Shown piece by piece: positions 5,401-64,000 of a DNA stretch of 64,000 nt. The notes under the pieces were generated by a model that ran no database searches, was not told the DNA's origin, and worked only from the letters and a program-made list of their open reading frames with translations. The first letter of the stretch is position 1, and each line of letters begins with the position of its first letter. A program made the translations under genes and the position numbers. Source of the DNA: a virus (taxonomy: Duplodnaviria; Heunggongvirae; Uroviricota; Caudoviricetes); IMG/VR virus record IMGVR_UViG_3300036790_000204, positions 42,103 through 106,102 of that record; one strand, 5' to 3'.

Positions 5401-6120
5401 GACCGAGAGCACGACGAGGCCCGGGCGCTTTACAAGGCGGCGCTCGCGGCCGCGCCCGACCCGAAGCAGTACGCGGACGCGCAGCGGCAGGCGGCGCTCG
5501 ACATCCTCGGCGAGGTGATCCCCGGCGGCATGGGCGGCATCGGCGCGCAGTACGTCGCCAGCGGGAGGAACGGCAAGCCCCTGACCGAGCGCGGCCAGCT
5601 TGTGCAGTCGATGCGGTGGGCCGAGCAGCATTACCCGGCGTCGTGGCTGAAAAAGTACCGGGAGCGCGCCAACTACCGGCTCGGCGACATCCAGCGCGGC
5701 CACTACGCCGACTCGACCAAGGAAATCCGCCTGTCGAAAGACACGGAGAAGGTGACGGGCGGCGGCGACCGCGGGCGCGTTGCGGTCCACGAGGCGGGAC
5801 ACGCTATGGAGTACGGCGTGCCCGGTATCCTCCCCCTCGAGGACGCCTATCTGTGGTCGCGGACGTCATCGGGCGACATCGGGTCGCGGACCCGCGAGAA
5901 GAAAGCGTCACTCGGCGCCGGGATGAGCGGCGAGCGCACTTACCGGGATGAGTTCCCCGAGCCGTACTCCGGCAAGGACTACCCGGGCGGCGGCAAAGAC
6001 GGCCTCTCGAGCGCCTACGAGCTGCTCACGACCGGTATGGAATCGCTGTTCGCCGGATCTGGCTACCTAGATCCTGGCTTCCGGCAGTGGCTTCTCGGTA
6101 CGCTTGCCCTGGTGAACTAG
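2497..6120 (+). CDS. large phage protein (about 1207 aa) with C-terminal HEXXH zincin-like metallopeptidase domain; N-terminal NPDRHPRDRHGRF motif
   Basis: ORF 2470..6120. The ATG at 2497 overlaps the upstream TGA (ATGA coupling). C-terminus has VAVHEAGHAMEYG and a Gly-rich tail. No Walker or portal motifs seen. Confidence 0.5.
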   Translation: MLIKAVRRDEHGVRRVVASWNPDRHPRDRHGRFITTGHEVHLADGSTGTVVRAVGSSSIEVRHADGHLQRVAANTVSVTAPNAAGALEGIRFPANRKLTVTHGPGDTPVIGHVTSHRDHLAVQPARGGPAVYIPHSSVNRIMENPGRDGRPGAVRYVRPGWNPGRHAERDTAAQVDQVSARDLQPGDHAMVPHPLTGEPAPGTIVDKRLDGDTIELDVRRADGSVDTAAMDRDAAVDKITGAGAPDDFPDETDTTPAPAALPPVAVKPLPAGTTVARPVLYTYQRRKITALNLDRDRTLPEDLRQAAARIRQRQPLSAGQSAALSAELRERAQAHPSPVQTRSLERAAWRLDAAAAEAHGQVIPEPGIVPDRAAEVMPDGITEGDSIVLPGPDGTLTAMKVRGITSMMGGRVRVLDVEHDDGTIEQRTITGRTRAWLLPDRPDDEPVAAPGPRLEHITPDQLRPGDTIRVSEDHDADTDQVTGVEPLEPGEARITLASGQTQLSQSYDGGPSIVRTARGDASAGQPWDSLMAAEHPETGVGPAEIRVGDRIIHGTGAYAVTGAVVEADPLDIPGAKELTIREDNSSNTTVRLYPGDTVTRLVKADDNAAARIEEEKRRRLADAAVSRINYAISGLLQASRDRDLRMAGNFYGQSHDDLAASISAIPAERALARMDSHIRILQNALMPPDGTPETESAAAEAARRLLPAIGELAERQRADVIASFKNAEDGIDPAALADRHARADPAGLLASARSRVMRQWHDTPPPTPSMAATRAIAEAAAAVRGTAVAPDAAGDIPKPLPDGGALAARIRAYRAQLPADAAGIGRQSVTRAVFATPRLEDLEAGKAPAVELAQVTTPDRAPDGGPGAIAMRHLDTVMAAGRDLDAELQARIAKAPIRIETPEAKAERDELRKKSVEAGTAAFRAYRASMDSYAKAHGYMSAMMLERQGTSAQLAEAREQATKIRAERDREHDEARALYKAALAAAPDPKQYADAQRQAALDILGEVIPGGMGGIGAQYVASGRNGKPLTERGQLVQSMRWAEQHYPASWLKKYRERANYRLGDIQRGHYADSTKEIRLSKDTEKVTGGGDRGRVAVHEAGHAMEYGVPGILPLEDAYLWSRTSSGDIGSRTREKKASLGAGMSGERTYRDEFPEPYSGKDYPGGGKDGLSSAYELLTTGMESLFAGSGYLDPGFRQWLLGTLALVN

Positions 6121-6437: not shown

Positions 6438-6729
6438 CCTGCGGCACCCTCCGCTCATCACCGCCGCGCTGTGGCCGCTCGACCTCAACTATGACCGGGG
6501 CATCGAGTGCGCTGCCTGCGGTGATGTCATCCTCATGGCGGACGGCGACGCCCCTTTCAGGTTCACCCCGGCCGCGCTGCTCGACGCCCTGACTGAGCAC
6601 GCCTGCGAGCGGAACACCGCGACGTTAGGCGCCGCCGGCGGCGACGCTAGCGCACATGCCGTCAGCCCGCGCCCGTTTCCGCGCCGTCCCACGGGCCGAG
6701 CCCGCGCAGGCGCCTGCCGCGGGCGATGA
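6427..6729 (+). CDS. hypothetical protein
   Basis: 100-aa ORF with overlapping stop and start. Confidence 0.25.
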   Translation: MSTDLRHPPLITAALWPLDLNYDRGIECAACGDVILMADGDAPFRFTPAALLDALTEHACERNTATLGAAGGDASAHAVSPRPFPRRPTGRARAGACRGR

Positions 6730-7411
6730 AGCCGACTGGCCGCACCCGCGGACCGGCGAGACCTGGCACGGCACCGTGACCGGCGTTTCGGGTGACGGGG
6801 CGCAGGTGGCGTGGCATTCCTACACCCGGCCCGGCGCCGACAAGACACTGCGGCCGATGCGGCACGCCAGCGCCGTGCCCGCGGCCGAGCTCAGCCGCCG
6901 GCCGGCCGGCCGCCCGGCCGAACGGAAAAGCGGCTACACCGGCCTGACTTCCCAGTCGGGCATGATCTCGCTCGACGTGCCGCCAGGCATCATGACCCCG
7001 GTGCCGGGCGGCGTGGACGAGCCGCCGCACGTCACCGTCGTGTACCTCGGCAAGAACCTCACAGACGACGCATGGGAGCAAGCGTGCGCGCGCGCCTCGC
7101 AGGCCGCCACCACGGCGCCGGGTCCGGTTGACGGGACGATCGGCGGACTCGGCGTGTTCCCGCCTGACGAGACCGGCAGCATGCCCGTGTTCGCCCACGC
7201 GCAGATCCCGGACGCGCACCCGATCCGCAAGCAGCTCGAGGACTTGTCGGCCTCGCAGCACCGTGAATGGCATCCGCACGTGACGATGACGTTCGCCAGC
7301 CCGGGCGACGTGCTGCCCGCCGCCCCGGATCCGACTCCCGTCACGTTCACCCACCTGTCCGCGCACCGCGGCGACGAGGTGCGCCGGTTCAAGCTCGGCG
7401 GCGGCCGGTGA
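6656..7411 (+). CDS. 2H phosphoesterase (LigT / Acb1-like 2',5' RNA ligase or cyclic-nucleotide phosphodiesterase family)
   Basis: Two H-x-T-x motifs (PHVTVVY and HPHVTMTF) about 80 aa apart. The core domain may start at the ATG near 6962 (150 aa), or at 6857. Confidence 0.6.
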   Translation: MPSARARFRAVPRAEPAQAPAAGDEADWPHPRTGETWHGTVTGVSGDGAQVAWHSYTRPGADKTLRPMRHASAVPAAELSRRPAGRPAERKSGYTGLTSQSGMISLDVPPGIMTPVPGGVDEPPHVTVVYLGKNLTDDAWEQACARASQAATTAPGPVDGTIGGLGVFPPDETGSMPVFAHAQIPDAHPIRKQLEDLSASQHREWHPHVTMTFASPGDVLPAAPDPTPVTFTHLSAHRGDEVRRFKLGGGR

Positions 7412-20388: not shown

Positions 20389-20892
20389 GTGAACGTCATC
20401 AACCGCGAGATAGCAGAAGTGGTTCTCTACCACGGCAGCCAGCGGCGGTCGCACGGTGAGTGGCTGCTCGCCGGGGCGTGCATCTGCAACCCGTGCGCCG
20501 CCCGCGTCCTCTCCGGTGGCGAAGGCCGGTGGGAGCTCGCCGACGTGCGCGGGCCGAACCGCATCACGTGCGTGCGCCGCGAGTCGTTCACCCCGTACAG
20601 CGAGCTTCCGCAGGCCGCGCCCGCGCCAGTTCACAAGACCACGACGACGCCGCCATCCGGCTACGTCGAGAACGGCGACGGGACGCGCCGTTTTGACAAG
20701 CGCGGCCGGGTGATGCGCGACCGTTTCTCATTCGCCCGCTGCACTTGCGGATGGGTGTCGGGCGGAGCCGACCGCGCAGAGGCGCGCGCCAACGCGAGGC
20801 GGCACCGTGATGAGCAGGCCGCGCTTCAGCAGGCCGAGACAGACGCCGCGCTCGCCGCGCTCCGCGCCAAGCTGGAAGGGCCGACATCATGA
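20389..20892 (+). CDS. hypothetical protein
   Basis: 167-aa ORF with a GTG start. Confidence 0.35.
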   Translation: MNVINREIAEVVLYHGSQRRSHGEWLLAGACICNPCAARVLSGGEGRWELADVRGPNRITCVRRESFTPYSELPQAAPAPVHKTTTTPPSGYVENGDGTRRFDKRGRVMRDRFSFARCTCGWVSGGADRAEARANARRHRDEQAALQQAETDAALAALRAKLEGPTS

Positions 20893-21803
20893 GCGCGTAT
20901 AAGCCAGACTTGTCGCTGCCGACGTTCTACCTCGGCACCCACCGCCCCAACTGGCTGTGGGACGGGTCGATGCCCTTCCCGCTCATGGCGTCCGACCGGA
21001 CACTCCGCGAGGTGGTCAACCTGCGCCCGGCCACCGCGCCCGAATGGTCGCTCGACTCGGGCGGCTTCACGGAGCTTTCCTCCTACGGCCGGTGGACCGT
21101 CAGCCCGCGAGAGTACGTCGAGCGCGTAGCCCGCTACGACCGCGAGATCGGCGGACTGGCGTGGGCCGCGCCGCAGGACTGGATGTGCGAGCCCGCGATC
21201 ATCAGCGGCGGCCGCGTCAGCACCACCGTGACCGCGCCGGGCACCGGCCTGTCGGTCGCCGGGCACCAGCGGCGCACCGTCGCGAACTACCTCGAGCTGA
21301 CCGCGCTGTGGGGGCAATACAGCGATACAGAAAGCCCGTTCATCCCCGTGCTGCAGGGCTATAAGGCGGCCGACTACGAGGCGTGCCACGCGCTGTACGG
21401 GGCGGCTGGCGTCGACCTCGGCGCGGTCCCGCTGGTGGGAGTCGGGTCGGTGTGCCGCCGTCAGGCAGAAACGGAAATCCGCGACATCGTGTCCGTGGTC
21501 GCCGCGATGCCACTCGTGTCGCACTGGTTCGGCATGAAGCTGACCGGCATCCGGCTCGCTGGCGTCCGCACCGGTGAGATCTGGGAGAATGGCGAACTGA
21601 CCGAGAACGGCCCGGCGTCGCTTGACTCGCTCGCATGGTCGTACGAAGCGCGCCGCTCGGCCCGGCTGTCCGACTGCACCCACAGGGCGCAGAAGTGCTC
21701 AGGCTGCCGTGTGTGGGCGACTGCATGGCGGGACAAGGCGATCAAGGCGCTGCGCGACGCCGCCACCGCACCGGTTCAGGACATGCTGCCTTTCGCCGCC
21801 TAG
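20889..21803 (+). CDS. TGT/DpdA-like transglycosylase (candidate 7-deazaguanine DNA-modification enzyme)
   Basis: LDSGGF motif (compare TGT LTDSGGFQ). C-terminal C-x6-C-x2-C cluster. About 300 aa, like phage DpdA. Confidence 0.4.
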   Translation: MSAYKPDLSLPTFYLGTHRPNWLWDGSMPFPLMASDRTLREVVNLRPATAPEWSLDSGGFTELSSYGRWTVSPREYVERVARYDREIGGLAWAAPQDWMCEPAIISGGRVSTTVTAPGTGLSVAGHQRRTVANYLELTALWGQYSDTESPFIPVLQGYKAADYEACHALYGAAGVDLGAVPLVGVGSVCRRQAETEIRDIVSVVAAMPLVSHWFGMKLTGIRLAGVRTGEIWENGELTENGPASLDSLAWSYEARRSARLSDCTHRAQKCSGCRVWATAWRDKAIKALRDAATAPVQDMLPFAA

Positions 21804-42014: not shown

Positions 42015-42128
42015 GCAGGGAAAAGGAAATAGCCGACGTCACCGCCGAGGCAGACGCCCTGCTCGGCAAGCTACGCGCCAACGTCGCCGCCCTCAACGCC
42101 ATCCTCGCAACAGACCCGGAGGTCACTG

Positions 42129-43047: not shown

Positions 43048-45549
43048 ATGGCCGGAGCCATGAGCAGCACCATCGAGATCATCCTGAGCATCATCGACGG
43101 CACCGGCGCCGCAGTGACCGAAGGGTCAGCGGTTTTCACCGCGACATCCCCGGTGATCAGCGCTGACGGCACGACGGAAATCATCCCGGCCCCCGTCACG
43201 ATCCAGCTCGGCGACGGGCCGCCCCCCGTCTCAGCGACGCTTCTCCCGACTGACGTCGCAGGCGACCTGCCGATCGGGTGGGCGTGGCAGGTCTCGTTCC
43301 CCGATGTCCCGGGCGACCTCGAGTCGTTCACGTTCGCCGCCCCCGCAGGCCCCGCCTCTTTCGCCGCGGCGGCCGGCACGCCGGGCGTCATCACGTGGAC
43401 CGCGACCGCGGCGCTGACCGCACTGCCGAACGGGACCGGCGTGAAGCTGACCGGCGGGTCGCTGCCCACCGGGATCACGGCGGGCACCACCTATTTCGTG
43501 GTCGGCACGTCGGGGCAGACGATTCAGCTCGCCGCGACCCCGGGAGGATCGCCGCTGACGCTGACCTCGAGCGGCTCGGGTCAGCTCACCGTCGTCTCCT
43601 ACTACCTCGCCAGCGTCACCAGGGTCACCACGGGCGCCGCCCTCAGCCCGCTGGCGTCCTACTTCGACGAGCTCGGCGCCGCGGCGGCAGCCCAGGCGGC
43701 GGCCGAGGCCGCGAGCATGCCCACCCTGGCGCAGGTCGCCGTCAGCACCGCCGGCACCCTCGCGGTCAACAAGGTCACCACGGTCACCGCCGCGGCCGCC
43801 CTGACGATGACGCTCCCGACGCCGGTCACGGGCGCGTGGATCGTGTGCGAGCGGGCGTCGGCCAGCACCGCGGCCGTGACGATCACCGGGAACGTCCGCG
43901 GCGCCGCGGGCACCTCGGTCACGCTGCAACTCGGCTCGGAATCCGAAATGTTCTTCGCGACCGGCGGCAGCTGGTGGCCGATTGCCGGCCACAAGACCCT
44001 CGGCTCGCTCGACACCCGGTACACGGCGTGGCTCAACGTCAAGGGCGCCGCGTTCGGCGCGAAGGGCGACGGCACCACCGACGACACAGCCGCGATCAAC
44101 CTCGCGCTCAGCACCGCGACGCCCGGGCAGGTCGTCTACCTCCCGGCCGGAACCTACGTGACGTCGGCTCCGCTCGTCGTCCCGTCGGGTGTCATCCTGC
44201 GGGGCGACAGCGGCGGTCTCGGCATCCCGATCGGCAACTACTCGATCGGCGGCCTTCCCGTCGGCGGCACCATCATCAAGCCCGCAGCGGGATTCACGGG
44301 CATCGCCGTGATCTCGATGACACAGGCAAGCGGGCAGGGGGGCCAGCAGCAGTTCTACGCGTTCAGCGTCGACGGCTCCAACGTGACCGGCACGAACACC
44401 ATCCACGGCATCGAGGCGACCAGCGCCGTCGCAGCCGTGAAGATGCGCGACGTGCTGGTTTACGGCGGCAACGGGGCGCTCGGCGGCGACGGCCTCCACG
44501 TGGCGGCAGGATCGAACGGGCTTCCCGACTTCTGGGACGTCGCGCACTGCAAGTTCTCCGGTTTCAAGGGCAACGGCGTCAGCCTCAACGGGCTCGCGGA
44601 CTCGTTTTTCTTCGCGTGCGAGTCGACCGGGAACACCGGGTGGGGATGGACGATCACCAACGGCAACAACAGCCGGTTCGTCGGCTGCAAAGCCGAGGGC
44701 GCGGGCACGAACGGCGGGTGGCAGCTGACCGCGGCGTCCGGGTTCACCGGGCAGCTCACTTTCTCGGCGTGCACGTCGGGGAGCAACCACCAGGACGGAT
44801 GGCAGGTCAACGGGCCCGGCGCCGGCGTCTACTCCATTTCCGGCTGCCGGTCGACCAATGACGGGCTCACGTCCGGCGCCGGGTTCACCGTGCAGGCCGG
44901 CTACGCGGGGACCGTGCAGCTGACCGGCGTCGACACAGTGCCGGCGACGAGCACCCCCGCCTACGGGCTGAAGGTCAGCGCGGTCGCCGGCACCGCCGTG
45001 ATACAGGTGGCCAACTCGACGCTTTGGGGCGTCACTGGCGGCGTCAGCAACGACGCGTCGACCCCCAACGTCCTCTACGACGGCAACTGCGTTCTCACCT
45101 CGGGCGCCCTCGCATCCCCGGCGCCCGTGCCGCAGCCGCAGTCGATCTCGCAGGGCGGCACCAGCGCGACGACGGCAGCCGCGGCGCTGACCGCCCTCGG
45201 CGCGCTGCGCCCCCTCGCGGCCACCGCAGCCGGCGGCTACACGCAGGTGAACGGCACCGGCACCGTCCTGACGTGGACCGCCCCAAACGACGGGCAGCTG
45301 CACCGTGTGATCCTGCTCGCCGACCTGCACGTCACCACCACCCAAGTCGGCGGTGCCATCACGATGAACTGCGATTTTCCCGATGGGTTCGCGAACGCCC
45401 CATCGGTGTTCGCCGGCGCGGCCAGCCCGGGCGGCTACGGCGCCTTCGTCGGCCGGGTGGTCGAGGCCGGGGCCACCGTCACGATCACCCAGTCGTCGGC
45501 CCTCACTTCCGGGGCGGCGGTCATGTGGGCTGAGCTGTGGGGATGCTAG
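43048..45549 (+). CDS. tailspike/tail fibre 1 with pectate-lyase-like right-handed beta-helix domain
   Basis: GDGTTDDTAAINLAL..VYLPAGTY motif. N- and C-terminal domains are paralogous to the next gene. The likely start is the second ATG (about 43060), by alignment with the paralog. Confidence 0.6.
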   Translation: MAGAMSSTIEIILSIIDGTGAAVTEGSAVFTATSPVISADGTTEIIPAPVTIQLGDGPPPVSATLLPTDVAGDLPIGWAWQVSFPDVPGDLESFTFAAPAGPASFAAAAGTPGVITWTATAALTALPNGTGVKLTGGSLPTGITAGTTYFVVGTSGQTIQLAATPGGSPLTLTSSGSGQLTVVSYYLASVTRVTTGAALSPLASYFDELGAAAAAQAAAEAASMPTLAQVAVSTAGTLAVNKVTTVTAAAALTMTLPTPVTGAWIVCERASASTAAVTITGNVRGAAGTSVTLQLGSESEMFFATGGSWWPIAGHKTLGSLDTRYTAWLNVKGAAFGAKGDGTTDDTAAINLALSTATPGQVVYLPAGTYVTSAPLVVPSGVILRGDSGGLGIPIGNYSIGGLPVGGTIIKPAAGFTGIAVISMTQASGQGGQQQFYAFSVDGSNVTGTNTIHGIEATSAVAAVKMRDVLVYGGNGALGGDGLHVAAGSNGLPDFWDVAHCKFSGFKGNGVSLNGLADSFFFACESTGNTGWGWTITNGNNSRFVGCKAEGAGTNGGWQLTAASGFTGQLTFSACTSGSNHQDGWQVNGPGAGVYSISGCRSTNDGLTSGAGFTVQAGYAGTVQLTGVDTVPATSTPAYGLKVSAVAGTAVIQVANSTLWGVTGGVSNDASTPNVLYDGNCVLTSGALASPAPVPQPQSISQGGTSATTAAAALTALGALRPLAATAAGGYTQVNGTGTVLTWTAPNDGQLHRVILLADLHVTTTQVGGAITMNCDFPDGFANAPSVFAGAASPGGYGAFVGRVVEAGATVTITQSSALTSGAAVMWAELWGC

Positions 45550-45626: not shown

Positions 45627-47864
45627 ATGGGCAATGTCGAGATCATCCTGGGCCTGTTCGACGGCACCGGGGCGCTCGTCACCGAGGGCTCGGCGGTGTT
45701 CACCGCCAACTCGCTGGTGATCAGCCCGGATGACACTGAGGAGATCATCCCGGCGCCGATCTCCATCCCGCTGGCAACCGGGTCGCCCGCCACGGTGCAG
45801 CTCGCCCCGACTGACGGCGGCCAGGTGCCGGCCGGCTGGGCGTGGCAGGTCGCCTTCCCTGGCGTCCCCGGGAATCTCGAGCCGTTCAGCTTCGCCCTCC
45901 CGGCCGGGCCCGCGTCGTTCACCGCAACGCACGCTTCCCCGGCGGTTTTCACGTGGACACCGACCGCGGCGCTGACGGTGCTCCCGAACGGCACCGGCGT
46001 GAAGCTCGCCGGCGGGTCGCTGCCGGCCGGGTTCACCGCCGGAACCCTCTACTACGTGGTCGGCGCTTCGGGGCAGACGTTCCAGCTCTCGGCGACCGTG
46101 GACGGGTCGGCGATCGCGTCGACCGGAACCGGGTCCGGCACGCTGACCGTGTCGCAGATGTACCTAAGCGCGGTCGACCACGTGATCACCCCGCCGGCGT
46201 CGGCGTCGTACCTCCCGGAGCCCGCGGGCACCCCCCCGGCCGGGTGGGTGCCCACCGCGACCGGCGTCGGGCAGGCGTCAGCGTGGGCGCCGCCGGCCGC
46301 TGGCTCGGCCGGCGTGATCCTGGTGGCCGCGTCGAACGCGCCGGCCAGGATCGCGAACGCCGCCGACTACCTGTGCACCGGGACCAACGACCAGGTGACG
46401 ATCAACGAGGCGATAGCGGCGCTGCCGTCCGGCGGCGGCACCGTCCTGCTGTCGTCCGGCGTCTTCCAGATCGCCGCGCCGATCACGATCACCAGCAGCA
46501 ACGTCAGCCTCGAGGGACAGGGCGTCGGCACGCAGCTGCAGGTGCCGTCCGGCTCGAACCTGAACTGGGTCATCGCGCTGACGGGGCAGTACACGGTCGA
46601 GTGCAAGCTGCGCCGGTTCTTCATCCAGGGCAGCTACGGGGACACGAACGGCCACGGCATCTACATCAGCACCCCGTGGGGGTCGACCGACACCCAGCAC
46701 GTCCTCGAGGACATCTATGTAACCAACTGCCCGGGCCACGGTGTGTACGTGCCCGCGGCGGCCGACACGCGCGTTTTGTTGTTCAACAGGGTGCACGTCA
46801 AGAACGTGAAGGGCAGCGGCTTCTACTTCGCGTACCCGTCGCAGACCGACTCGGTGTTCACCGACTGCATCGCCGACACCTGCGGGCAGCACGGGTTCTT
46901 CTGCGGCGGCGCCAACAACTGGTTCCAGAACTGCAAGACGTTCTACTGCGGCTCGTCGGGGTCGCTGTACTTCGGGTTCTTCATCCTCGGCTACAACCAG
47001 TATTTCGAGTCGTGCCAGGCGCAGGACAACTACAACCACGGCTTCTACGGCTCCAACTCGGGTGACGCCACCTACGGGGCGTTCGGCTGCGTGTTCGTCA
47101 ACTGCTCCGGCGACGCCAACGGGCAGAGCACCCCCGCTTCCGGGCTCGTCGGCAACGGCGTGCAGGAATGGCAGGTCATCGGCGGCGTGTGGATGACGCG
47201 CCCCTACGAGACGTCGTGGCAGCAGGAATACGGCATCACCTGGCAGGACGCGGTGACCGGCCCGACCGGGCTGCGGGCCTCGAATAACAACACCGTAATC
47301 GGGGCGCTGTTCCGCAACAACAGCGCCGGCGACATCCTCGACACCTCGAGCGGGGTCAACTACCCGCTGGGGAACGTCAGCGACTCGAACGCCTCGCCGA
47401 GCAGGCTTCAGGGGAAGCTGACGGTCCCGTCGCTGCAGGTGACAGGCGGGGCGGCAGCCGGGAAGGTACTCACCTCGGACGCCTCGGGAAACGGCACCTG
47501 GCAGGTGCCGGCGATCCCGATGACCCGCGTGGCCGGCACCGCGATCGGCGGCTACTCGCTCACGAACGGCACCGGGCAGATGGCCGCGTGGACCGCGCCG
47601 AACGACGGCCAGAACCACCGGGCGCTGATCATCGCCAGCCTGCACGTCACCTCGGCGCAGAGCGGGGGCGCGGTCGAGGTGTTCGCCGACTTCCCCGACG
47701 GCTTCAACGCTGCGCCGCCCTTGTTCGCGGGCGGCCTCGGCGCCGGCGACCACAGCGCGACGACGAGCTGCGTCATCGAGCCCGGCAGCACCGTCAGCGT
47801 CGATCAGATCTCCGCGCAGACGGCGGGCGCCGCGGTGCTGTGGTGCGAGATCTTCGGCTACTGA
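45627..47864 (+). CDS. tailspike/tail fibre 2 (paralog) with a different beta-helix enzymatic core
   Basis: N-terminal 190 aa and C-terminal about 90 aa are similar to the upstream gene. The central GTNDQVTINEAIAAL...beta-helix repeats differ. Confidence 0.6.
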   Translation: MGNVEIILGLFDGTGALVTEGSAVFTANSLVISPDDTEEIIPAPISIPLATGSPATVQLAPTDGGQVPAGWAWQVAFPGVPGNLEPFSFALPAGPASFTATHASPAVFTWTPTAALTVLPNGTGVKLAGGSLPAGFTAGTLYYVVGASGQTFQLSATVDGSAIASTGTGSGTLTVSQMYLSAVDHVITPPASASYLPEPAGTPPAGWVPTATGVGQASAWAPPAAGSAGVILVAASNAPARIANAADYLCTGTNDQVTINEAIAALPSGGGTVLLSSGVFQIAAPITITSSNVSLEGQGVGTQLQVPSGSNLNWVIALTGQYTVECKLRRFFIQGSYGDTNGHGIYISTPWGSTDTQHVLEDIYVTNCPGHGVYVPAAADTRVLLFNRVHVKNVKGSGFYFAYPSQTDSVFTDCIADTCGQHGFFCGGANNWFQNCKTFYCGSSGSLYFGFFILGYNQYFESCQAQDNYNHGFYGSNSGDATYGAFGCVFVNCSGDANGQSTPASGLVGNGVQEWQVIGGVWMTRPYETSWQQEYGITWQDAVTGPTGLRASNNNTVIGALFRNNSAGDILDTSSGVNYPLGNVSDSNASPSRLQGKLTVPSLQVTGGAAAGKVLTSDASGNGTWQVPAIPMTRVAGTAIGGYSLTNGTGQMAAWTAPNDGQNHRALIIASLHVTSAQSGGAVEVFADFPDGFNAAPPLFAGGLGAGDHSATTSCVIEPGSTVSVDQISAQTAGAAVLWCEIFGY

Positions 47865-48218: not shown

Positions 48219-49868
48219 CTAGTCCTCCCCGATCCGGATGCGCCTCGCCGCCGGCAGCCTGTTGCCCTTCCCGCACCGCATCAGCCGCAGCGTCCCCGCC
48301 ATCCCCGGCGAGAACACCGCCCGCAAGACGCGCCGCCTCGCTGCGAGCCCGGCCGCCTTCCACCGGGCCGCCACCTCTTCCTCCGGCCCGAGCCAGTCAG
48401 CCAGCTCCGGCGGTGCCGACAGCCGACGGGCCGTCTCCTCGAGTTGCTGTATGGCGGCGACGATCCCCGGCTCGATCTTCGCGAACGACGCCGCTGACAC
48501 CTCCCGGCGCGCGGCCCGCTCCTGCCAGTCCGCGAGATCGGCGCCGGCGGCCGCGAGGTCCGCGCGGACTCGCCGTAGCTCGGGCGCCGCGTCCTCTGAC
48601 GGGGCCAGGGCCTTGGCGGTCGCCGGCTCTGACAGCCATGCGATTAGGATCACGGCCGCCACCGCGTCCATGTCGTCGGCTGCGATCCGGACGTGCGACC
48701 CGTCCCGGCAGGTGTACATCCGGCGGTCGCCCCGGTAGTCGGCCGTCAGCGGCCCCGCGCACGCCCCGCACACCGCGATCATCGACAGCAGGTGCTTCGC
48801 CCCGCCCGGGCGCCTCGAATGCCGCTGCGGGTTGGTCACCAGCGCGTGCACCTCGTGGAACAGCTCCGCGTCGACCAGCGGCGGCCAGGTGCCGGGGACC
48901 GCCCCCGCGAGGGTGCCGCGCCTCGCCCGGCGGCCGCCTTTCTCCTGCGGCTGGTGGACGCGCAGCCCCGCGTAGGTGGGGCTGGCGGCCATGTCCCGCA
49001 GCACGGTGGCGCTGAACGGCAGCGGGGGTTGTTTGGCGGTCCCACGGGTCTTGATGCCCCGGGCGGCGAAGTCGATGGCGATCGCCCGGATCGATTCCCC
49101 GGCCCGCACCCGTTCGAATAGCTCCACCACGATCGGCGCCTCGTGGGGGTGGAGCTCCTGCGCGATCAGCCGGCGGGTAAGCGGGTCGTACACCCGGCGG
49201 TAGCCGTAGGGGACGCGCCCGTGAGGCTCGCCCCGCGCCGCGCACTGCGCTAGAGCCCCCGACACCCGCAGTGAGATCTTCCCCGACTCGTACTCGGAGT
49301 CGGTCGCGTCCTCCATCAGCGAGCGGCGGTCGCGCGGGTTCGACGGGTCGTACAGCCTGCCGTGGGTTGTGACGTAGATGCGGACCCCGGCGTCCTCGCA
49401 GGCGTCCGCCAGTGCCGCCCACTCGCCGACGCGCCGCGAGCCGCGCGACGACTCGTGCAGGATGAGGATCTCCGCGCCGAACGCCCCGCCCTCGAGGTCG
49501 GCGATGAGCCGGTCGTATTCGGCCCGCGCCCGGTCGGTGTACCTCGAGGCGGAGACGGCGTCGGCCTCCCGGTAAAGCTCGCCGAGCGCCCAGCCATTGC
49601 GGGCGGCGTGGGCCGAATTCTCGTCGTGCTGCTTCTCCGGCGACGCCATGCGGCCGGTCTTGTCACGGGAAACCCGAAGGTACTCGCGGGCGCGCTGCAA
49701 CGCGGCGGGGATAAAGTCGCCGGTTGTCTCGGTGCGGGTGGTCACGGAAACAGGATAGGTCACTAAGGAGTGATGAGCCAGGAGATTCCCGCTTAGTGAC
49801 CCTTTGGCCGCCGGGGGCGACCGAGCGCGGCGACGGGTGGAAGAATGCCGGTCATGGCCGACGACCAC
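48219..49868 (-). CDS. int: large serine recombinase (integrase)
   Basis: YLRVSRDK catalytic Ser region, recombinase domain, Zn ribbon C.AC....YTCRDG. The true start is probably the GTG near 49745. Confidence 0.8.
   Translation of the reverse strand: MVVGHDRHSSTRRRARSPPAAKGSLSGNLLAHHSLVTYPVSVTTRTETTGDFIPAALQRAREYLRVSRDKTGRMASPEKQHDENSAHAARNGWALGELYREADAVSASRYTDRARAEYDRLIADLEGGAFGAEILILHESSRGSRRVGEWAALADACEDAGVRIYVTTHGRLYDPSNPRDRRSLMEDATDSEYESGKISLRVSGALAQCAARGEPHGRVPYGYRRVYDPLTRRLIAQELHPHEAPIVVELFERVRAGESIRAIAIDFAARGIKTRGTAKQPPLPFSATVLRDMAASPTYAGLRVHQPQEKGGRRARRGTLAGAVPGTWPPLVDAELFHEVHALVTNPQRHSRRPGGAKHLLSMIAVCGACAGPLTADYRGDRRMYTCRDGSHVRIAADDMDAVAAVILIAWLSEPATAKALAPSEDAAPELRRVRADLAAAGADLADWQERAARREVSAASFAKIEPGIVAAIQQLEETARRLSAPPELADWLGPEEEVAARWKAAGLAARRRVLRAVFSPGMAGTLRLMRCGKGNRLPAARRIRIGED
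49759..49802. promoter_or_regulatory. perfect 10-bp inverted repeat GGTCACTAAG-N24-CTTAGTGACC just upstream of the integrase start
   Basis: Seen directly in the sequence. An extra GGTCAC direct repeat lies nearby. Confidence 0.35.
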
Positions 49869-50185
49869 CCGCAGATAATCTGCGTACTCGAGGTCGACGG
49901 TGTGCCAGTGGACCCTTCGGTACCGCGCTGGTTCACCGCCGAGCCGTACACCGCCGAACCGGGCGCACCGCAGGACTGGTCAGGATGGACCGACCTCGGC
50001 GCGACGACCGACGAGATCCCGCCGGCATTCCGGCGCCGAACTAGCCACCGGGGATAGTCGCCGCGGTGGCCGCCGCCGACGCCTTCCCGTAGGCGACGGG
50101 TACGCTGAGTACACGCTAGTGGGTAATCGTCAGGGTATGTTTCGCGAGTCGCGGTGCTTCATCGTCCGGTGGGAGACTGCTGGTC

Positions 50186-51004
50186 ATGTCCAGTGACACC
50201 ACCGCCCTAGGCGACCGGATGAAGGGCTACGAGAGCGCCGCGCGCCTTACGCTGCCCCGCCGCACGTATACGATCGTCCGCGCTGACATGCGCGGCGCCC
50301 ACAGCTACCTGCGGCGCGCCCAGCGGCCGTTCGACGAGGCGTTCATGAGCGTCATGGACAAGACCGCCGCCGCGCTGTGCGCCGAGATGATGGGGGCGGT
50401 CCTGGCCTACGTGCAGTCCGACGAGATCTCGGTCCTGCTCGCCGACTTCGGGTCGGTCCACGCGGAGCCGTGGTTCGGCGGCGTCGTCCAAAAGATGGCG
50501 TCACTGGCCGCGGCCGCCGCGACGGCCGAGTTTAACGACGAGGCGCGCGACGCGTCGGGCGCCGGCTTCGAGCCGCCGAACTACCGCGCCATGTTCGACG
50601 CCCGGGTCTTCACCATCCCCGACCCGGTCGAGGTCGCCAACTACTTCGTGTGGCGCCAGCGGGACTGCCTCCGCAACTCGGTGTCGATGGCCGCTCAGGC
50701 GCACTTCTCCCACAAGCGGCTGCACGGCCTCAATGGCGGGCAGATGCAGGAGCTGCTGTGGTCGGAGAAGGGCGTCAACTGGAACGACTACCCCGACGGG
50801 GCCAGGCGCGGGCGGATCCTACGGCGGGTGACCGGCGAAGAACCCGTGACCTACACCGACAAGCGGACGCAGCAGGAGCAGACGACGATCGCGATGCGGT
50901 CGCGGTGGGTTGCGTCCGCAGCCCCCTCGTTCACCGCCGCGGCGGCGTCGTTCCTGGCCGAGGCCATTCCGCCGCTGCCGGATCTCCGGACTGTAGCGGC
51001 GTAA
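50186..51004 (+). CDS. Thg1-like protein (tRNA-His guanylyltransferase / 3'-5' polymerase family)
   Basis: TIVRADMRGAHSY, AYVQSDEISVLL, FDARVF...ANYFVWRQRDCLRNSVSM match the Thg1 blocks (RIDGKKF, GESDEYSF, YLSWRYVDTHINNLYN). Confidence 0.65.
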   Translation: MSSDTTALGDRMKGYESAARLTLPRRTYTIVRADMRGAHSYLRRAQRPFDEAFMSVMDKTAAALCAEMMGAVLAYVQSDEISVLLADFGSVHAEPWFGGVVQKMASLAAAAATAEFNDEARDASGAGFEPPNYRAMFDARVFTIPDPVEVANYFVWRQRDCLRNSVSMAAQAHFSHKRLHGLNGGQMQELLWSEKGVNWNDYPDGARRGRILRRVTGEEPVTYTDKRTQQEQTTIAMRSRWVASAAPSFTAAAASFLAEAIPPLPDLRTVAA

Positions 51005-51169
51005 GCTGGACGAGCTGAAGGGGTTCCTAGGTCATACAAGCGACATCGTTCAACTAGACGATCTCTCAAGAGCAGGACGCCGGGCGTTTCGCGAGATCCC
51101 GAGCGGGGGGAATCATCGGCCGCCCCGGTACGCGGCGTGGAGAATCGGGAGTGGCCGCTGCCGCTTGCA

Positions 51170-51406
51170 TCACGCCGTCCCGGTCGCCCCGGCCGCCGCC
51201 GCCAGGGCCTTCCCGTAGGCCAGGGCGTTCCGCTCGCTCGGCACCCGCTGCCCGGTTTCCCACGCGCTGACCGCGGCGCGGGTGACCTTGGCCGCCCGGG
51301 CGACCTCGGCCGCCGAGACCCCGGCCGCCTCGCGGCGCCGTCGCGCCTCGCCCGAACGCAGCTCGGCCCGGATCCGGGCGATGGCGGCGAGATCGGCGGG
51401 GCGCAC
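51170..51406 (-). CDS. HTH XRE-family regulator (Cro/repressor-like)
   Basis: C-terminal 78 aa of ORF 51170..51760: GVSAAEVARAAKVTRAAVSAWETGQRVPS. GTG start near 51406. Its upstream region is lower-GC. Confidence 0.45.
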   Translation of the reverse strand: MRPADLAAIARIRAELRSGEARRRREAAGVSAAEVARAAKVTRAAVSAWETGQRVPSERNALAYGKALAAAAGATGTA

Positions 51407-51608
51407 AACTCGACGGTACGACTGTTGCGGCAGCCGCTTAGTGAGGCGCGCGCGTGGGTGATTCCGGAGCGTCAACGGAACGTCAACAGCCGAGCTGATT
51501 CGCTGCTCTACTAGTGCTCTCGCTGAACGGGCTGCCGACGCTCCGTAGTCGGGCTGATACGCTAGTGCTTCCGAGCAGTAGCAATACTGGACCTGATGGG
51601 AGACCGTT

Positions 51609-52340
51609 TTGACCAGTTCGTTCGACGGTCCGCGCCGGATCGCCCCTCCGCCGGGCACCCCGTCGCCCAACTTCTGGCGCACCTTTCCGCCGGAACTACT
51701 CACGCCCGAAGAGGTGGCGGCCATCATCGGCGGCTGCTCGACTGGCTCGAGGACCGGCATCCGGAACCGCGCTCTCCTGACGCTGTTCTACCGGAGCGGC
51801 ATCCGGATCAGCGAGGCGCTCGGCGCGCCGGCCCGGCCAGAGCAGCGCTACAGGAAGCGCGACGGCGGCGAGGGCATCCAAGCGCCCCGGGCGGCCATCC
51901 CGCCGCTGCGCGCCTCCGGCGTCAACTTCGCCACTCACAGCATCCGGGTACTGCACGGCAAGGGAAACAAGGCGACCACCCGAGGGTTCCACCACACCGC
52001 AGATGACACCCTGGCGCGGTGGATAGACACCCGGAAGGGGATAGGGCCGACCGGCCCGCTGTTTTGCACGCTCGAGGGCGACCCGCTCCGGGCAGCATAC
52101 GTGCGCGAGTTGCTCAAGCGGCTGGCCGAGAACGCCGGGATTGACAAGCGCGTTCACCCGCACGGTTTCCGGCACACCTTCGCCGTCGAACTCCGGCAGG
52201 CCGGTATGGACGTCGGAGCCATCTCCAAGCTGCTCGGACACTCCTCGATCGCGGTCACCACCCGCTACCTTGACCATCTGACCAACGACCAGGCGATCAG
52301 CGCCCTGACCGCCATCGAACTGCCGGACGTGGGCGCGTAG
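51609..52340 (+). CDS. short tyrosine recombinase (catalytic domain only)
   Basis: R..H..R/HxxR, LLGHSSIAVTTRYLD (catalytic Tyr). Confidence 0.55.
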   Translation: MTSSFDGPRRIAPPPGTPSPNFWRTFPPELLTPEEVAAIIGGCSTGSRTGIRNRALLTLFYRSGIRISEALGAPARPEQRYRKRDGGEGIQAPRAAIPPLRASGVNFATHSIRVLHGKGNKATTRGFHHTADDTLARWIDTRKGIGPTGPLFCTLEGDPLRAAYVRELLKRLAENAGIDKRVHPHGFRHTFAVELRQAGMDVGAISKLLGHSSIAVTTRYLDHLTNDQAISALTAIELPDVGA

Positions 52341-53731: not shown

Positions 53732-54400
53732 GCGCCGAGCCTACGGCGCGGCCCGTCGCAGCCGCGATGAGAACCCGGCCGACGTCGGCTCGGCCCCCAT
53801 CGTGAGAACCTCCTGCAGCGCTTCGGTAAGCGCCCGGTTGCCGAGCTGCTCGAGGTCTTCCAGCGTCAGGCCTGTCACGTCGATAAGCGGCGTGGCCAGG
53901 GCGGCAGTGTCAAGGCTCATAAGGCGAGCGTAGCCGGAAACGGCGAAGCCCGGTCATGTCCGCGCCAACGCGCAGTTCCTGACCGGGCTTCCCCTTCACA
54001 TGGCTAGGCCGCCGCGCTTCCCGCGAGGCTCGCGCCCCAATCCACCGCGGCCACTCCAGCGTCCCAGAGCGATCATTAGCCCAAGCGTAGCGCCTTCAGA
54101 ACACGTTGTGCTGCACGCCGCCGTCGCCAATCTGCACGCCGTCCGCCGCGATCCGCCGGGATTCCTCGGCAGTAGGGGGTAGCGATGTCAGCGGCGGAAA
54201 CGACTTCGGAGCGGTGCACCTGAGCGCCACCGAAGGCAGCGCGAAACCGGGCGGCAGCCCCACCTCGGGCGCGAGCAGCACGCCGTTCCGGATCGTCCCG
54301 TACCGATAGTTTCGGATGCGCTCACGGCGGGGCCGGCAGATCAGCGCCAGCATCACCCGGCCGATCCCGATGCCGACGGCGCGGGGGCCGACGCTGACGA

Positions 54401-60719: not shown

Positions 60720-61787
60720 TCACATCCCGGTGGGCTCGGTCCGTTCCCGCTCGGGTGCCGTCTCGGGTGTGGCCTTGACCTCGTCGTGGGCCTTGCACGG
60801 GCCGCCGTCGAGCTTCGCGCCGCAGATGTCCTCGCTATCAGGCGTCGGGACCGCGCATATCACGTCCGCGCTGGTCGGGCACGGCAGTAGCACGCCGATG
60901 ACGGTGTTGATCGGCTCACCGGGCCGGGAGACGATCCGAACCGGCTGATCGTCGTTGAAGCAGCGCGCGGCGTCGGTCCGGTCCCACCAGGCCTGCGCGC
61001 TCTCGCTGCCGTCCCATTCGGTGCCCGGGTCGCCGTCCCAGACGGTCGGGATGCTGTGCAGAATCCAGTCCATCGCCTTGGCGGGGACGTTCTGACGCAG
61101 TTCGATCCGAGCCGTGTACATGGTGTCGGCCTGCTGCGACACCACCTTGCCGAGCGTGATGCACGCCTGCTGCAGCCGGTCGGCCCGCGCGGCGCTGGTC
61201 TCGCCTGCCTGTCCGGCGACCGTCAGCTTCCGGTACTCGCCGGCCTCGTCCTCGGTGATGACGTCCCCTGCCTCGGCCCGGTCGGTGAGAGAGGAAAGCG
61301 CCGCGCGCAGGTCGGCGATCACGTCGGTCAGCGTCACGCAGACGGCTTCGGCGTTGGCGGCGCGCTCGGCGTCGCCCGGCCCTGTCTGCTCGCGCTCGAG
61401 CCTCGCCTCTGCGTCGGCTAGCCGCCCGATTTCCTCGGGGTCGAGGTGGAGCGCCTTGCCGTGCTCCCACAGGCGCTCGCCGACGCCGCCGTCCTCCCAT
61501 GCGTTCATGATCTGAACGGCCAGTCGGTCGGCCTCGTTCGGGTCGTAGGCGGCGAGGCGGGTCAGGGTATGGAGCGCGGCGAACTGCGCGCACGTGAGCA
61601 GGATCTCGCGGTGGTCGAACTCAGCGTGCGGGCTGACCGACCGCGCGAACCCGCGCTGGGCGGAGAGCGCGAGGTGGCGGGACAGTTCGAGTGCGGGCAG
61701 CGGCATGCTCGATGTCGGTCGCGGGGCGATCTGGTGGTAGCGCTCGCGGATCTCAGCGACGGTCTCAGGCGTCTCGGTGGTGGTCAT
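60720..61787 (-). CDS. hypothetical protein
   Basis: 355 aa. Confidence 0.3.
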   Translation of the reverse strand: MTTTETPETVAEIRERYHQIAPRPTSSMPLPALELSRHLALSAQRGFARSVSPHAEFDHREILLTCAQFAALHTLTRLAAYDPNEADRLAVQIMNAWEDGGVGERLWEHGKALHLDPEEIGRLADAEARLEREQTGPGDAERAANAEAVCVTLTDVIADLRAALSSLTDRAEAGDVITEDEAGEYRKLTVAGQAGETSAARADRLQQACITLGKVVSQQADTMYTARIELRQNVPAKAMDWILHSIPTVWDGDPGTEWDGSESAQAWWDRTDAARCFNDDQPVRIVSRPGEPINTVIGVLLPCPTSADVICAVPTPDSEDICGAKLDGGPCKAHDEVKATPETAPERERTEPTGM

Positions 61788-61823
61788 GCGTTCCCCCCTG
61801 GCTGCTAGTTTCGGTTCGGGTTA

Positions 61824-62720
61824 CTACTCGGCGGCCGTATCGGCGTCGGCCACGGCGTCGGCCGGGTCGCTGTCGGGCACCCGGTCGGCCATGACCTCGG
61901 GCTCGGGCTGCTTCTCGTCTAGCCCCCACTGCCGGTAGCGGCGGATGACGGCCCTGATCGCGTCCTGCGCCCTCGGCGTGAAGTCGGCGGGCACGAGCCG
62001 CATCCAGTCGGTGTTCGGCAGCGTCCGGCCGAGCGCCTCGACCGCGGCCATCGCGTTGTCTTTCTCGTCCCAGCCCTGCGCGAGCCGCCAGCCGGAGCCG
62101 GTGACGATCGCCCAGTCCTCGCCGAAGAAACCGTTGCCGGTCATCCGCAGGAACAGGCCCGGAACCGGGGTTACGTAGGCGAGCTGCCAGCGCAGGCGCG
62201 GGCCCGGCTCGTCGGGCTCGTGGCAGACCATCAGGATCGGCACCGCGCCCTGCCCGTCGGGGTCGAGGGTGACGCGGAGAATCGCGGAGATCGCCGCGAT
62301 CTCGACTCGCGCCCGCTCGCGGCCTTGCTCCGGGTTGGCGTTGGCCTTGATCTCTTCGAGGGTTCGGCGGGGCGGCAGCTCGTCGTAGGGCTTGCCGTAG
62401 AAGATCCGCGAGAGTGGGTCGTGCAGCGGCTCGGTGGGCAGCAGCCGGTCTGTGGTGGCCAGCGGCGAGTGACGCCACGGCCGGTAGCCGGGCGGCAGGT
62501 CGTCGTCCTCGTGGACTTCCTGCGCGTCCGTCCATGACCTGTAGCCGGCCGAGATCCTCTTGTACTCGGCGTCAGAGACGATGTGGGCGACGGTGCCGCT
62601 CTCGAGCTGCTCACCTTCGGCGATCCACCGCCCGATGCGGTGCCCGTTGTACTGGTCGCCGTCAAGGAACTCGTCGAGAGCCTTGTGCGCGTCGGCGCGG
62701 CTGAATCCGATCTGCGTCAT
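61824..62720 (-). CDS. hypothetical protein
   Basis: 298 aa. Confidence 0.3.
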   Translation of the reverse strand: MTQIGFSRADAHKALDEFLDGDQYNGHRIGRWIAEGEQLESGTVAHIVSDAEYKRISAGYRSWTDAQEVHEDDDLPPGYRPWRHSPLATTDRLLPTEPLHDPLSRIFYGKPYDELPPRRTLEEIKANANPEQGRERARVEIAAISAILRVTLDPDGQGAVPILMVCHEPDEPGPRLRWQLAYVTPVPGLFLRMTGNGFFGEDWAIVTGSGWRLAQGWDEKDNAMAAVEALGRTLPNTDWMRLVPADFTPRAQDAIRAVIRRYRQWGLDEKQPEPEVMADRVPDSDPADAVADADTAAE

Positions 62721-62775
62721 TGCGTTCCCTCTGCTGGTTGGTTTCGGCTGGTGCGGTTGCGGGATAAGCGGGCGG

Positions 62776-63795
62776 TCAGTCGCGCGCGTCGATGAGCAGC
62801 GGGGTCAGCGACCCGCCGTCGAAGCCGGCTGTCGGCGGCGCCTCGGTCCAGACGCGGCCTTTCTGGTCGAGCCACCCGACCCGGCGCAGCGACACGGCGG
62901 TCACCTGCTGGCCGGTGTGGGCGTCCCGCTCGAACTTCGTGAAGAACTTCAGGTCCGGGTTGTCGTCGTCTTCCTCGCGGCCGGGGCGCATGTCGGGGCG
63001 CACGGTCCAGTCCTCGCCGGCGTGCAGGCGCATCGCCGTCTGGGCGCCCTGCGGGTTCGTCTCGGCCTCAGTCGGCGGCGGCGCGTCCGGGTCATCGGTC
63101 TTGGCTTGCGGTGCGGCGTATCGGTCGGCGAGGCTCGCGAGGATGCGGGCGGCCATCGCCCGGTCGATCTGGTCGAGCCACCCGGCGGTCCGCTTCTCGA
63201 TGGACAGCTCAAGGGCGGCGGCGCGGATGCCGGTCCGGACGGCGCGGCCGGGGTTGGACACGAAGCCGGTCACGGGTTCGCGCCCGGCCTTGAGGTCGTG
63301 CGTCGGCCGGAGCACGACCGTCTGCCCGCTGAACGCGCTCTCCACGATCTCGGCTAGGCGCTCGATGTCCATCGCGGGCAGCTTCTCCGGCGGGGCGGTC
63401 GGCTTGCCGGGCAGCTCGGGGGCGTCGGCGCGGTCGCTGGCGATCCACCGCAGGCACGCGGTCGCGAGCCGGTCAGGGTGCGCCGGGTAGCCGGTGCCTT
63501 CAGTTGCGCCGTTGTCGCCGTACACGGTCATCCAGCAGCCGCGCAGCGCCGCTGTGAGCGTCGACTCGGACACGTCGGGCCACGGGTCGTCCCAGCCGCG
63601 CGCGGATGCGGGCGACGTCTCGCCGATGGCGTCGAGCAGCGCCCGGGACTCCGCTTCCGGGTTTTTCACGCGGCCTCGCGTCAGCTTCACCCGGCCGCCA
63701 ATGGCGTTGCAAAGAGCCATGTCGTCTGGGATCTCGAACAACATCTCGCGCGCCTCGAGCGCCTTTGCCAGCTGGCTCGCGGATACGTCAGTCAT
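62776..63795 (-). CDS. hypothetical protein
   Basis: 339 aa. Confidence 0.3.
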   Translation of the reverse strand: MTDVSASQLAKALEAREMLFEIPDDMALCNAIGGRVKLTRGRVKNPEAESRALLDAIGETSPASARGWDDPWPDVSESTLTAALRGCWMTVYGDNGATEGTGYPAHPDRLATACLRWIASDRADAPELPGKPTAPPEKLPAMDIERLAEIVESAFSGQTVVLRPTHDLKAGREPVTGFVSNPGRAVRTGIRAAALELSIEKRTAGWLDQIDRAMAARILASLADRYAAPQAKTDDPDAPPPTEAETNPQGAQTAMRLHAGEDWTVRPDMRPGREEDDDNPDLKFFTKFERDAHTGQQVTAVSLRRVGWLDQKGRVWTEAPPTAGFDGGSLTPLLIDARD

Positions 63796-64000
63796 CTGCG
63801 TCCTCTCGTTGACCTGTTTCGGGTTGGTCGACCGGGCCCTGCTCGGGCTCGGAAGTCTCTTCGGCGTGGGTGGCCGCGTAAGCGGCCCGGTAGTCGCCCG
63901 CCTTCAGGGCGGCGATCACGTCGGCGTTCGGCGCGCCCCTCGGCGCGGGGCGCCGCCAGTCCGCCTCCGCCGGGGTCACGCACACCGGCCGCCAGCCGAA
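63788..64000 (-). CDS. hypothetical protein (may extend beyond the window)
   Basis: Minus ORF overlapping the downstream start. Confidence 0.2.
   Translation of the reverse strand, partial: FGWRPVCVTPAEADWRRPAPRGAPNADVIAALKAGDYRAAYAATHAEETSEPEQGPVDQPETGQREDADD

Follow-up and report, generated by a model that had tools for sequence, protein, structure and literature searches.

Among characterised bacterial Thg1-like proteins (TLPs), the one closest to the product of the gene described here is the enzyme of Bacillus thuringiensis (BtTLP), which adds nucleotides in the 3'-5' direction under Watson-Crick templating and carries out N+1 addition to 5'-truncated tRNAs, of several identities, in preference to the addition of G-1 (Rao et al. 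2011, PMC3061083). In vitro, the same enzyme can also place G-1 opposite C73, and its complementation of yeast thg1 is weak (PMC3061083). Its functional residues have been assigned as D30/D75/E76, R28/K99/R131, K43, S74, N154, E12, and R147, with the carboxylates coordinating two Mg2+ ions and corresponding to D29/D76/E77 of hTHG1 (PMC3701042). Repair of tRNA 5' ends against host defences has already been proposed for phage Thg1 (PMC2904730, PMC7824862), and Thg1 is listed among the RNA-repair nucleotidyltransferases of jumbo phages (Iyer et al. 2021, PMC7824862). The chemistry of bacterial and phage Thg1-like enzymes is well described, whereas their biological role is not established. Here, we analyse a TLP gene carried by a tailed phage on a 64,000-nucleotide stretch of IMG/VR record IMGVR_UViG_3300036790_000204 (positions 42,103 to 106,102; hereafter the window). 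Its product is assigned, from sequence and a predicted fold, as a bacterial-type TLP with an intact active site, and the function that we favour for it is repair of tRNA 5' ends.

The window TLP is comprised of a catalytic palm (residues ∼7-145), a Thg1 C-terminal domain (residues 150-234), and a tail conserved within its clade (residues 235-272). In a Pfam profile search, PF04446 (Thg1) matched residues 10-145 with 80.1 bits against a cut-off of 29.2, and PF14413 (Thg1C) matched residues 150-234 with 29.9 bits against a cut-off of 26.3. PHROG 4717, named "tRNA-His guanylyltransferase", was matched with an E value of 1.6e-74; no NCBIfam model matched the protein. The top match among the sequences of solved structures was BtTLP (PDB 4kgk, E 1.8e-51), with weaker matches to the Thg1 enzymes of Candida, human, and yeast (1.7e-12 to 3.9e-08) and to the TLP chain 5axk (2.3e-4), placing the protein nearer to BtTLP than to eukaryotic Thg1 or the archaeal TLPs. 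An AlphaFold2 model built from 30 homologues (mean pLDDT 85, pTM 0.82) has the RRM-like palm fold together with the Thg1-specific C-terminal domain. When this model was compared with the PDB using Foldseek, the top 32 matches were all Thg1 or TLP structures, with 4kgm first (E 1.2e-18, 44% identity), and the first fold of another kind appeared at E 4e-3.

The functional residues of BtTLP were mapped onto the window TLP, the chain indices of 4kgk agreeing with the numbering of Hyde et al. (2013; PMC3701042). The metal-binding carboxylates D30/D75/E76 are found as D34/D79/E80; none of the 119 close homologues departs from these three, nor does any viral homologue with a residue aligned at these positions. 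The nucleotidyl-transfer site (R28/K99/R131) is retained as R32/K103/R140, the activation-step residues S74 and N154 as S78 and N164, and the structural residues E12, R16, and R147 as E16, R20, and R157. Since the Pfam profiles, the PDB matches, the residue map, and the fold model agree, the protein is best described as a bacterial-type TLP whose active site is intact, and the corresponding enzyme activity is probably present. The initial annotation, which had proposed a Thg1-like 3'-5' nucleotidyltransferase and named PF04446 and the catalytic Asp/Glu residues as the checks to be made, is thus borne out on both counts.

By analogy with BtTLP, the enzyme would activate a 5'-monophosphate RNA end with ATP or GTP and would then add nucleotides in the 3'-5' direction, templated by the 3' strand of the tRNA acceptor stem. 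Truncated tRNAs would be rebuilt at their 5' ends in this way, so that the tRNA pool would stay usable despite damage to these ends in the course of infection or in the lysogenic state. The analogy further suggests that templated addition would be preferred over addition of G-1 and would be independent of the tRNA-His anticodon. We consider it probable, with moderate confidence, that tRNA 5'-end repair is the function of the window TLP, acting as a stand-alone accessory enzyme of a temperate Trebonia phage of ∼106 kb.

The phage setting, claimed from the outset, is plain. The window encodes a major head (capsid) protein, a giant protein containing a protease, a 1608-aa tape-measure protein, and tail-fibre/pectate-lyase proteins, all on the + strand, in addition to a serine integrase. 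NCBI has the identical TLP, named as a Thg1 family protein, on contig DASXEI010000513.1 (106,116 bp), and JGI lists it under a corresponding name; the contig is binned in a metagenome-assembled genome (MAG) of Trebonia, a member of the Streptosporangiales. The window is 100% identical to this contig and crosses its ends, with window positions 40186-61004 corresponding to contig positions 21486-668 and window positions 61531-64000 to contig positions 106116-103647. The contig begins and ends with the same 141 nt (junction copy at 61531-61671 of the window), and the assembly is consequently circular, giving a complete replicon of ∼105,975 bp. Because the integrase has phage genes to either side of it, the form represented here is the unintegrated one, and the replicon is probably a free or replicating phage genome and not an integrated prophage. 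An unusually small TLP-carrying phage was considered and rejected, the genome being a circle of ∼106 kb. Megablast against deposited phages returned no near-identical phage, and no terminase or portal was recognised within the window.

The TLP gene lies in a lysogeny module that contains two different recombinases (Table 1). As the initial annotation stated, it is next to the integrase, a large serine recombinase whose start is 318-441 nt away (its longest open reading frame (ORF) reaches 49868), with a single doubtful ORF of 70 aa in between. On the other side it is followed by a helix-turn-helix (HTH) regulator gene and a small tyrosine-recombinase-like gene. The duplicated gene end that had been noted here is also real: the direct repeat D18 (50057-50099 versus 51183-51225) shows 81% identity across 43 nt, its right copy forms the 3' terminus of the intact HTH gene, and the translation of the left copy resembles the C termini of the HTH proteins of the window (ALAYGKALAAAAGATGTA, then stop) and of the TLP-less phage L171 (ALAYAKALAAVTAPVTH, then stop).

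Table 1. Coordinates of the TLP gene, its surroundings, and the 2H phosphoesterase gene in the window.
Feature	Position	Strand	Size	Remarks
2H phosphoesterase ("2'-5' RNA ligase" superfamily)	6656-7411	+	251 aa	
Large serine recombinase (phage integrase)	48219-49745	-	508 aa as called	Pfam Resolvase and Recombinase; divergent from TLP
Inserted interval	49697-51195		∼1.5 kb; ∼1.4 kb net	∼100 nt in TLP-less phage L171
Vestigial 3' end of HTH gene	50041-50115	-	24 codons plus stop	RVLSVPVAYGKASAAATAATIPGG, then stop
Likely ribosome-binding site	50171-50175	+		GGGAG, 10 nt 5' of the TLP ATG; read off the sequence, presumptive
TLP gene	50186-51004	+	272 aa	ATG start
HTH_31/HTH_3 (XRE-type) regulator, intact	51170-51406	-	78 aa	Convergent with TLP; HTH_31 40.8 bits, HTH_3 40 bits
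Tyrosine-recombinase-like protein, small	51609-52340	+	243 aa	Pfam Phage_integrase, 109 bits

In L171 the genes run in the order tyrosine-recombinase-like, HTH, and serine integrase, with the HTH stop codon ∼50 nt from the integrase start; its integrase is 56% identical to that of the window and its HTH protein 67% identical over 57 aa. Blastn aligned window positions 49500-49696 and 51196-51444 with positions 2027-2223 and 2327-2572 of the reverse complement of L171. Because these two blocks are ∼100 nt apart in L171 and ∼1,500 nt apart in the window, the TLP gene sits in an insertion of ∼1.4 kb, in which the vestigial HTH end is a recombination scar at the left side. The TLP gene therefore entered by insertion at the junction of the HTH regulator and serine integrase genes, and the inserted interval holds, apart from the gene itself, the doubtful 70-aa ORF, the HTH vestige, and a spacer of 165 nt. 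A protein-database search returned 420 homologues of the integrase; none of its relatives was found in scans of viral and metagenome contigs. The small tyrosine-recombinase-like protein is 48-51% identical to its equivalents in L170 and L171. In all three related phages it consists of the catalytic domain only (164-243 aa) and is encoded beside the HTH and serine integrase genes (L170, 872-1366; L171, 4869-5372), and its candidate roles are dimer resolution or control of the direction of integration.

Arrival by insertion and the want of a local partner are what might be expected of a passenger gene that is inactive or decaying and does nothing for the phage. This is the least probable of the explanations considered: the ORF is full-length with every catalytic residue intact, its GC content at third codon positions (0.93) is in keeping with that of the remaining phage genes (0.82-0.96), two phage variants that differ elsewhere (L001 and L002) encode the same protein (100% identity), and 66 columns are invariant in the clade alignment. 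L002 departs from the window mainly in the first of two adjacent tail-fibre/pectate-lyase genes (43048-45549 and 45627-47864, both +), whose N-terminal segments are 73-76% identical to one another (repeats D1 and D2); this suggests a swap of a host-range module.

Insertion of a single gene within an integrase/HTH module is also compatible with cargo of benefit to the lysogen (a "moron"), in which TLP expressed from the prophage would shield the tRNAs of the lysogen from tRNase toxins of competitors or of superinfecting phages. No neighbour or partner gene of the TLP is conserved across the clade among close high-GC relatives, these relatives are scattered sporadically through the Actinomycetes, often in prophage-like stretches, and recombinases adjoin TLPs elsewhere (a serine recombinase in three lineages, a tyrosine integrase in L006). 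Lying on its own strand, the gene would need its own promoter, and a scan at the gene found neither a sigma-70-type promoter nor a terminator, a result that is weakly informative in an actinobacterium of 70% GC. No PADLOC defence model matches the TLP, the HTH protein giving weak generic matches only. Moreover, the biochemistry would be the same as in tRNA 5'-end repair by the phage, with a difference in timing and beneficiary alone. Protection of the lysogen is a serious possibility, and we judge it to be on the unlikely side.

The clade to which the window TLP belongs is a well-populated group of uncultured actinobacterial TLPs of ∼270 aa. The nearest relatives (60-79% identity) are those of uncultured actinobacterial phages and prophages, and further relatives at 55-61% identity are scattered in Streptomyces, Nonomuraea, Sphaerisporangium, Actinocorallia, Micromonospora, Dactylosporangium, Planomonospora, Nocardiopsis, and Yinghuangia. 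Most of the genomic contexts sampled are phage- or prophage-like, with one plainly chromosomal (Actinomadura, among metabolic genes). The absence of a shared neighbour, the sporadic spread, and the mostly phage-like contexts are together consistent with mobility of the TLP as a single gene.

To place the gene within its family, we drew 169 TLP loci from contigs of metagenomes, viruses, and genomes, sorted them into 70 lineages with a TLP identity threshold of 70%, and surveyed their neighbours. All ORFs lying up to 5 kb from the TLP were clustered and annotated with Pfam, and lineages were counted by tblastn; clustering was performed per lineage, since a single gut-phage lineage and antisense ORFs outweighed the rest when all loci were pooled. 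The recurrent neighbours were calcineurin-type phosphoesterases (12 of 70 lineages), RlaP (PF10127; 10), RNA ligase (PF09414; 6), a polynucleotide kinase (PNK)-like P-loop kinase (4, typically ∼110 nt from the TLP), CCA-adding enzyme (3), Tpt1/KptA (3), and HIT proteins (2). At least one RNA-repair neighbour was present in 29 of the 70 lineages, and RlaP, RNA ligase, or HIT accompanied the TLP in 5 of the 16 lineages of the clade of the window TLP (≥50% identity). A recent study showed that RlaP extends damaged 3' ends of RNA by nucleotide addition (bioRxiv 10.64898/2025.12.29.696909). Among deposited actinophages, a polynucleotide kinase gene lies 860 nt from the TLP in KashFlow, an Omegavirus mycobacteriophage of 111 kb, and a 2H "2'-5' RNA ligase" gene 430 nt from that of Rhodococcus phage Weasels2, which also has a phosphoesterase. 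The recurrent neighbours of TLPs thus form an RNA-repair toolkit, which supports RNA repair as the function of the family and, with lineages taken into account, adds weight to the published prediction of phage TLPs as members of such toolkits.

Two further points were counted in favour of repair. Some relatives abut tRNA arrays, and the window itself encodes a 2H phosphoesterase. The arrays directly beside a TLP are those of L111 (3152-5965, 24 tRNAs, an Armatimonadota MAG), which stops 36 nt before the TLP start, and L096 (8810-12752, 18 tRNAs, Micromonospora). The 2H protein is recognised by PF13563 (31.7 bits, cut-off 27) and by PHROG 2659, "RNA ligase" (4.5e-6); its translation contains both H-x-T motifs (HVTV and HVTM), and the 2H domain forms the C-terminal half, preceded by an extension of ∼100 residues without a match. 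No PDB sequence matched the protein. It is the only other candidate RNA-end-processing enzyme in the window, encoded 43 kb from the TLP gene, and it could serve in RNA-end healing, in which case the two proteins may be functionally tied, or could be an Acb1-like degrader of cyclic-nucleotide signals.

The HIT proteins bear on the nature of the substrate. In L010 (7595-8011) a HIT protein overlaps the TLP start codon, another is near the TLP in L103, and one is found in the TLP-less integrase relative L171 (2425-2955). The HIT family is able to remove 5'-AMP, and such an enzyme could act on the 5'-adenylylated RNA intermediate made by TLPs. This arrangement would suit a TLP that extends or 5'-adenylylates an RNA other than tRNA, such as a phage transcript or small RNA, or that aids ligation via App-RNA, and both substrates of this kind and a part in ligation have been put forward for TLPs (PMC6471195; PMC2904730). 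Against this, a search of the TLP flanks with Rfam gave one sub-threshold chance match and no structured RNA, and for the 165-nt spacer the predicted folding was no better than that of shuffled controls (z = 0.61). Every TLP characterised so far works on acceptor stems of the tRNA-like type, and the CCA-adding enzyme, tRNA array, and Tpt1 neighbours point to tRNA. A non-tRNA substrate therefore appears distinctly improbable, and tRNA is the substrate that we infer for the window TLP.

Maturation of tRNA-His, by addition of G-1 to a phage- or host-encoded tRNA-His without it, was the second role raised by the initial annotation, and is the one implied by the family name and the database annotations. 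It could also draw on the in vitro G-1 addition and weak complementation seen with BtTLP (PMC3061083) and on L111, where the TLP is beside an array containing tRNA-His. The loci themselves do not bear this role out. ARAGORN found no tRNA gene in the window or in 2.8 kb beyond it; under a relaxed threshold, 2 kb of coding DNA gave 12 calls that overlapped one another, and these were rejected as noise. Across 60 viral and metagenomic loci, no tRNA-His was found within 8-10 kb of the TLP and tRNAs of any kind in five. The sole adjacent tRNA-His found, that of L111, encodes G-1 opposite C73 and hence needs no addition, and neither the window nor the sampled loci contained a cognate tRNA-His lacking an encoded G-1, as a functional tRNA-His guanylyltransferase would call for. 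G-1 is described as genome-encoded in most bacteria (PMC3061083). Furthermore, BtTLP, an enzyme of the repair type, is a much nearer match to the window TLP (1.8e-51) than is eukaryotic Thg1. Collectively, these results make a tRNA-His role very unlikely. Mitochondrial-style 5'-editing was similarly not supported: acceptor stems were fully paired in 62 of 65 tRNAs beside the TLP genes of relatives, leaving no substrate of the editing type.

Repair of tRNA 5' ends accordingly stands as the better-supported of the two roles first proposed, through homology to BtTLP and the 29 lineages with RNA-repair neighbours. The counter-defence part of that proposal is reasonable in itself but fares less well. 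The acceptor-end attacks found in the literature (retron Eco2, HEPN-MNT, Cas12a3, MenT, and CapRel) all hit the 3' strand or the CCA tail, retron Eco2 nicking 6-7 nt upstream of CCA, and a TLP, which uses the 3' strand as its template, cannot rebuild it. This leaves a gap in the counter-defence proposal.

Several observations weigh against tRNA 5'-end repair by the window TLP. Our search of the literature found no defence or toxin that yields 5'-truncated tRNAs and no paper reporting an experiment on any phage TLP, and an in vivo role has not been established for bacterial TLPs (PMC6471195). The gene is not a member of an RNA-repair cluster, its neighbours being the integrase, HTH, tyrosine recombinase, and endonuclease VII genes, and no PNK, RlaP, or HIT protein (by BLAST) and no RNA ligase (by Pfam annotation) was found in the window. 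The analyses cover the 64 kb of the window, with ∼42 kb of the ∼106 kb circle outside it. Finally, one functional position is changed, the activation-step lysine K43 of BtTLP being R47 in the window TLP; this column holds 63 Lys and 56 Arg among the 119 closest homologues, and since Lys and Arg are freely exchanged within the clade, the change is evidently tolerated.

A more speculative proposal, which we hold to be improbable, is that the window TLP is a self-sufficient, mobile gene for tRNA 5'-end insurance, expressed from the lysogeny module and directed against an undiscovered class of defence or interbacterial toxins that trim or damage the 5' strand of the tRNA acceptor stem in Actinomycetes. 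If this were true, the distribution of the ∼270-aa clade among phages and prophages would show where such toxins are at work, and bacterial TLPs would gain a first in vivo role.

Other genes of the window were recorded in passing. Two very large + strand ORFs (116-2497, 793 aa, and 2470-6120, 1216 aa) have good coding statistics and no Pfam, PHROG, or PADLOC match. A DpdA homologue (20889-21803, +) lies among the head genes (PF23859, 271 bits; PHROG "queuine tRNA-ribosyltransferase"), which suggests that the phage DNA may carry a 7-deazaguanine modification. A 59-aa ORF in the phage early region (53741-53920, -) has a precomputed Pfam match to FxSxx-COOH (PF27839), a family named for its C-terminal FxSxx motif.

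Phage TLPs are already known as a kind. Homologues are carried by 160 deposited phage genomes, most of them annotated as tRNA-His guanylyltransferase, and six peptide patterns identified at least 231 confirmed viral homologues in IMG/VR. Earlier work by Anantharaman et al. is likewise said to show that phage TLPs are not new. Both NCBI and JGI already label the exact protein of the window a Thg1 family protein. The statement that phage Thg1 homologues are little described consequently holds for experiments and not for annotation, and the novelty initially claimed was overstated: as phage TLP genes have been catalogued and predicted to repair tRNA, the annotation is sound but ordinary. What is specific to this phage is modest, namely membership of the uncultured actinobacterial ∼270-aa clade and a traceable single-gene insertion in the lysogeny module. 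As a lone, intact TLP that was recently inserted as a single gene into a temperate actinophage, and for which TLP-less relatives allow comparison, the gene does provide a clean genetic handle.

Set against the known systems, the window TLP shares its fold and two-metal 3'-5' chemistry with eukaryotic Thg1 (yeast, human, and Candida) and with Dictyostelium TLP3, which performs mitochondrial tRNA 5'-editing, but is only 22-26% identical to them and has no sign of a tRNA-His-specific role. TLP homologues recur beside the genes of the described RNA-repair sets (Pnkp/Hen1, RtcB, Rnl, RlaP, CCA-adding enzyme, Tpt1/KptA, and 2H; Burroughs and Aravind; Iyer et al. 2021, PMC7824862), whereas the window TLP is outside any such cluster, with the 2H gene 43 kb away. 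The deposited carriers of PHROG 4717 include Bastille-like phages of Bacillus, phiCbK-like phages of Caulobacter, the jumbo phages 201phi2-1 and XacN1, Omegavirus mycobacteriophages, and Rhodococcus phage Weasels2. At 88-550 kb they are large, a pattern that the ∼106 kb genome fits, although the window TLP is at most 47% identical to any deposited phage homologue. KashFlow and Weasels2 have a PNK or 2H gene near their TLP, whereas that of the window is alone in a lysogeny module; the Omegavirus phages (∼111 kb) are nonetheless similar in size and have their TLP near an endonuclease VII gene, as is the case here. BtTLP (PDB 4KGK/4KGM; Rao et al. 2011, PMC3061083; Hyde et al. 2013, PMC3701042), at ∼44% identity over ∼207-210 residues, is the characterised enzyme nearest to the window TLP. 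The two differ in the residues equivalent to BtTLP K43 (R47) and T38 (L42), in the clade-specific C-terminal tail of ∼38 residues, and in being phage-encoded and chromosomal, respectively; they have in common the two-domain architecture, the carboxylates, the nucleotidyl-transfer residues, and the activation-step Ser and Asn.

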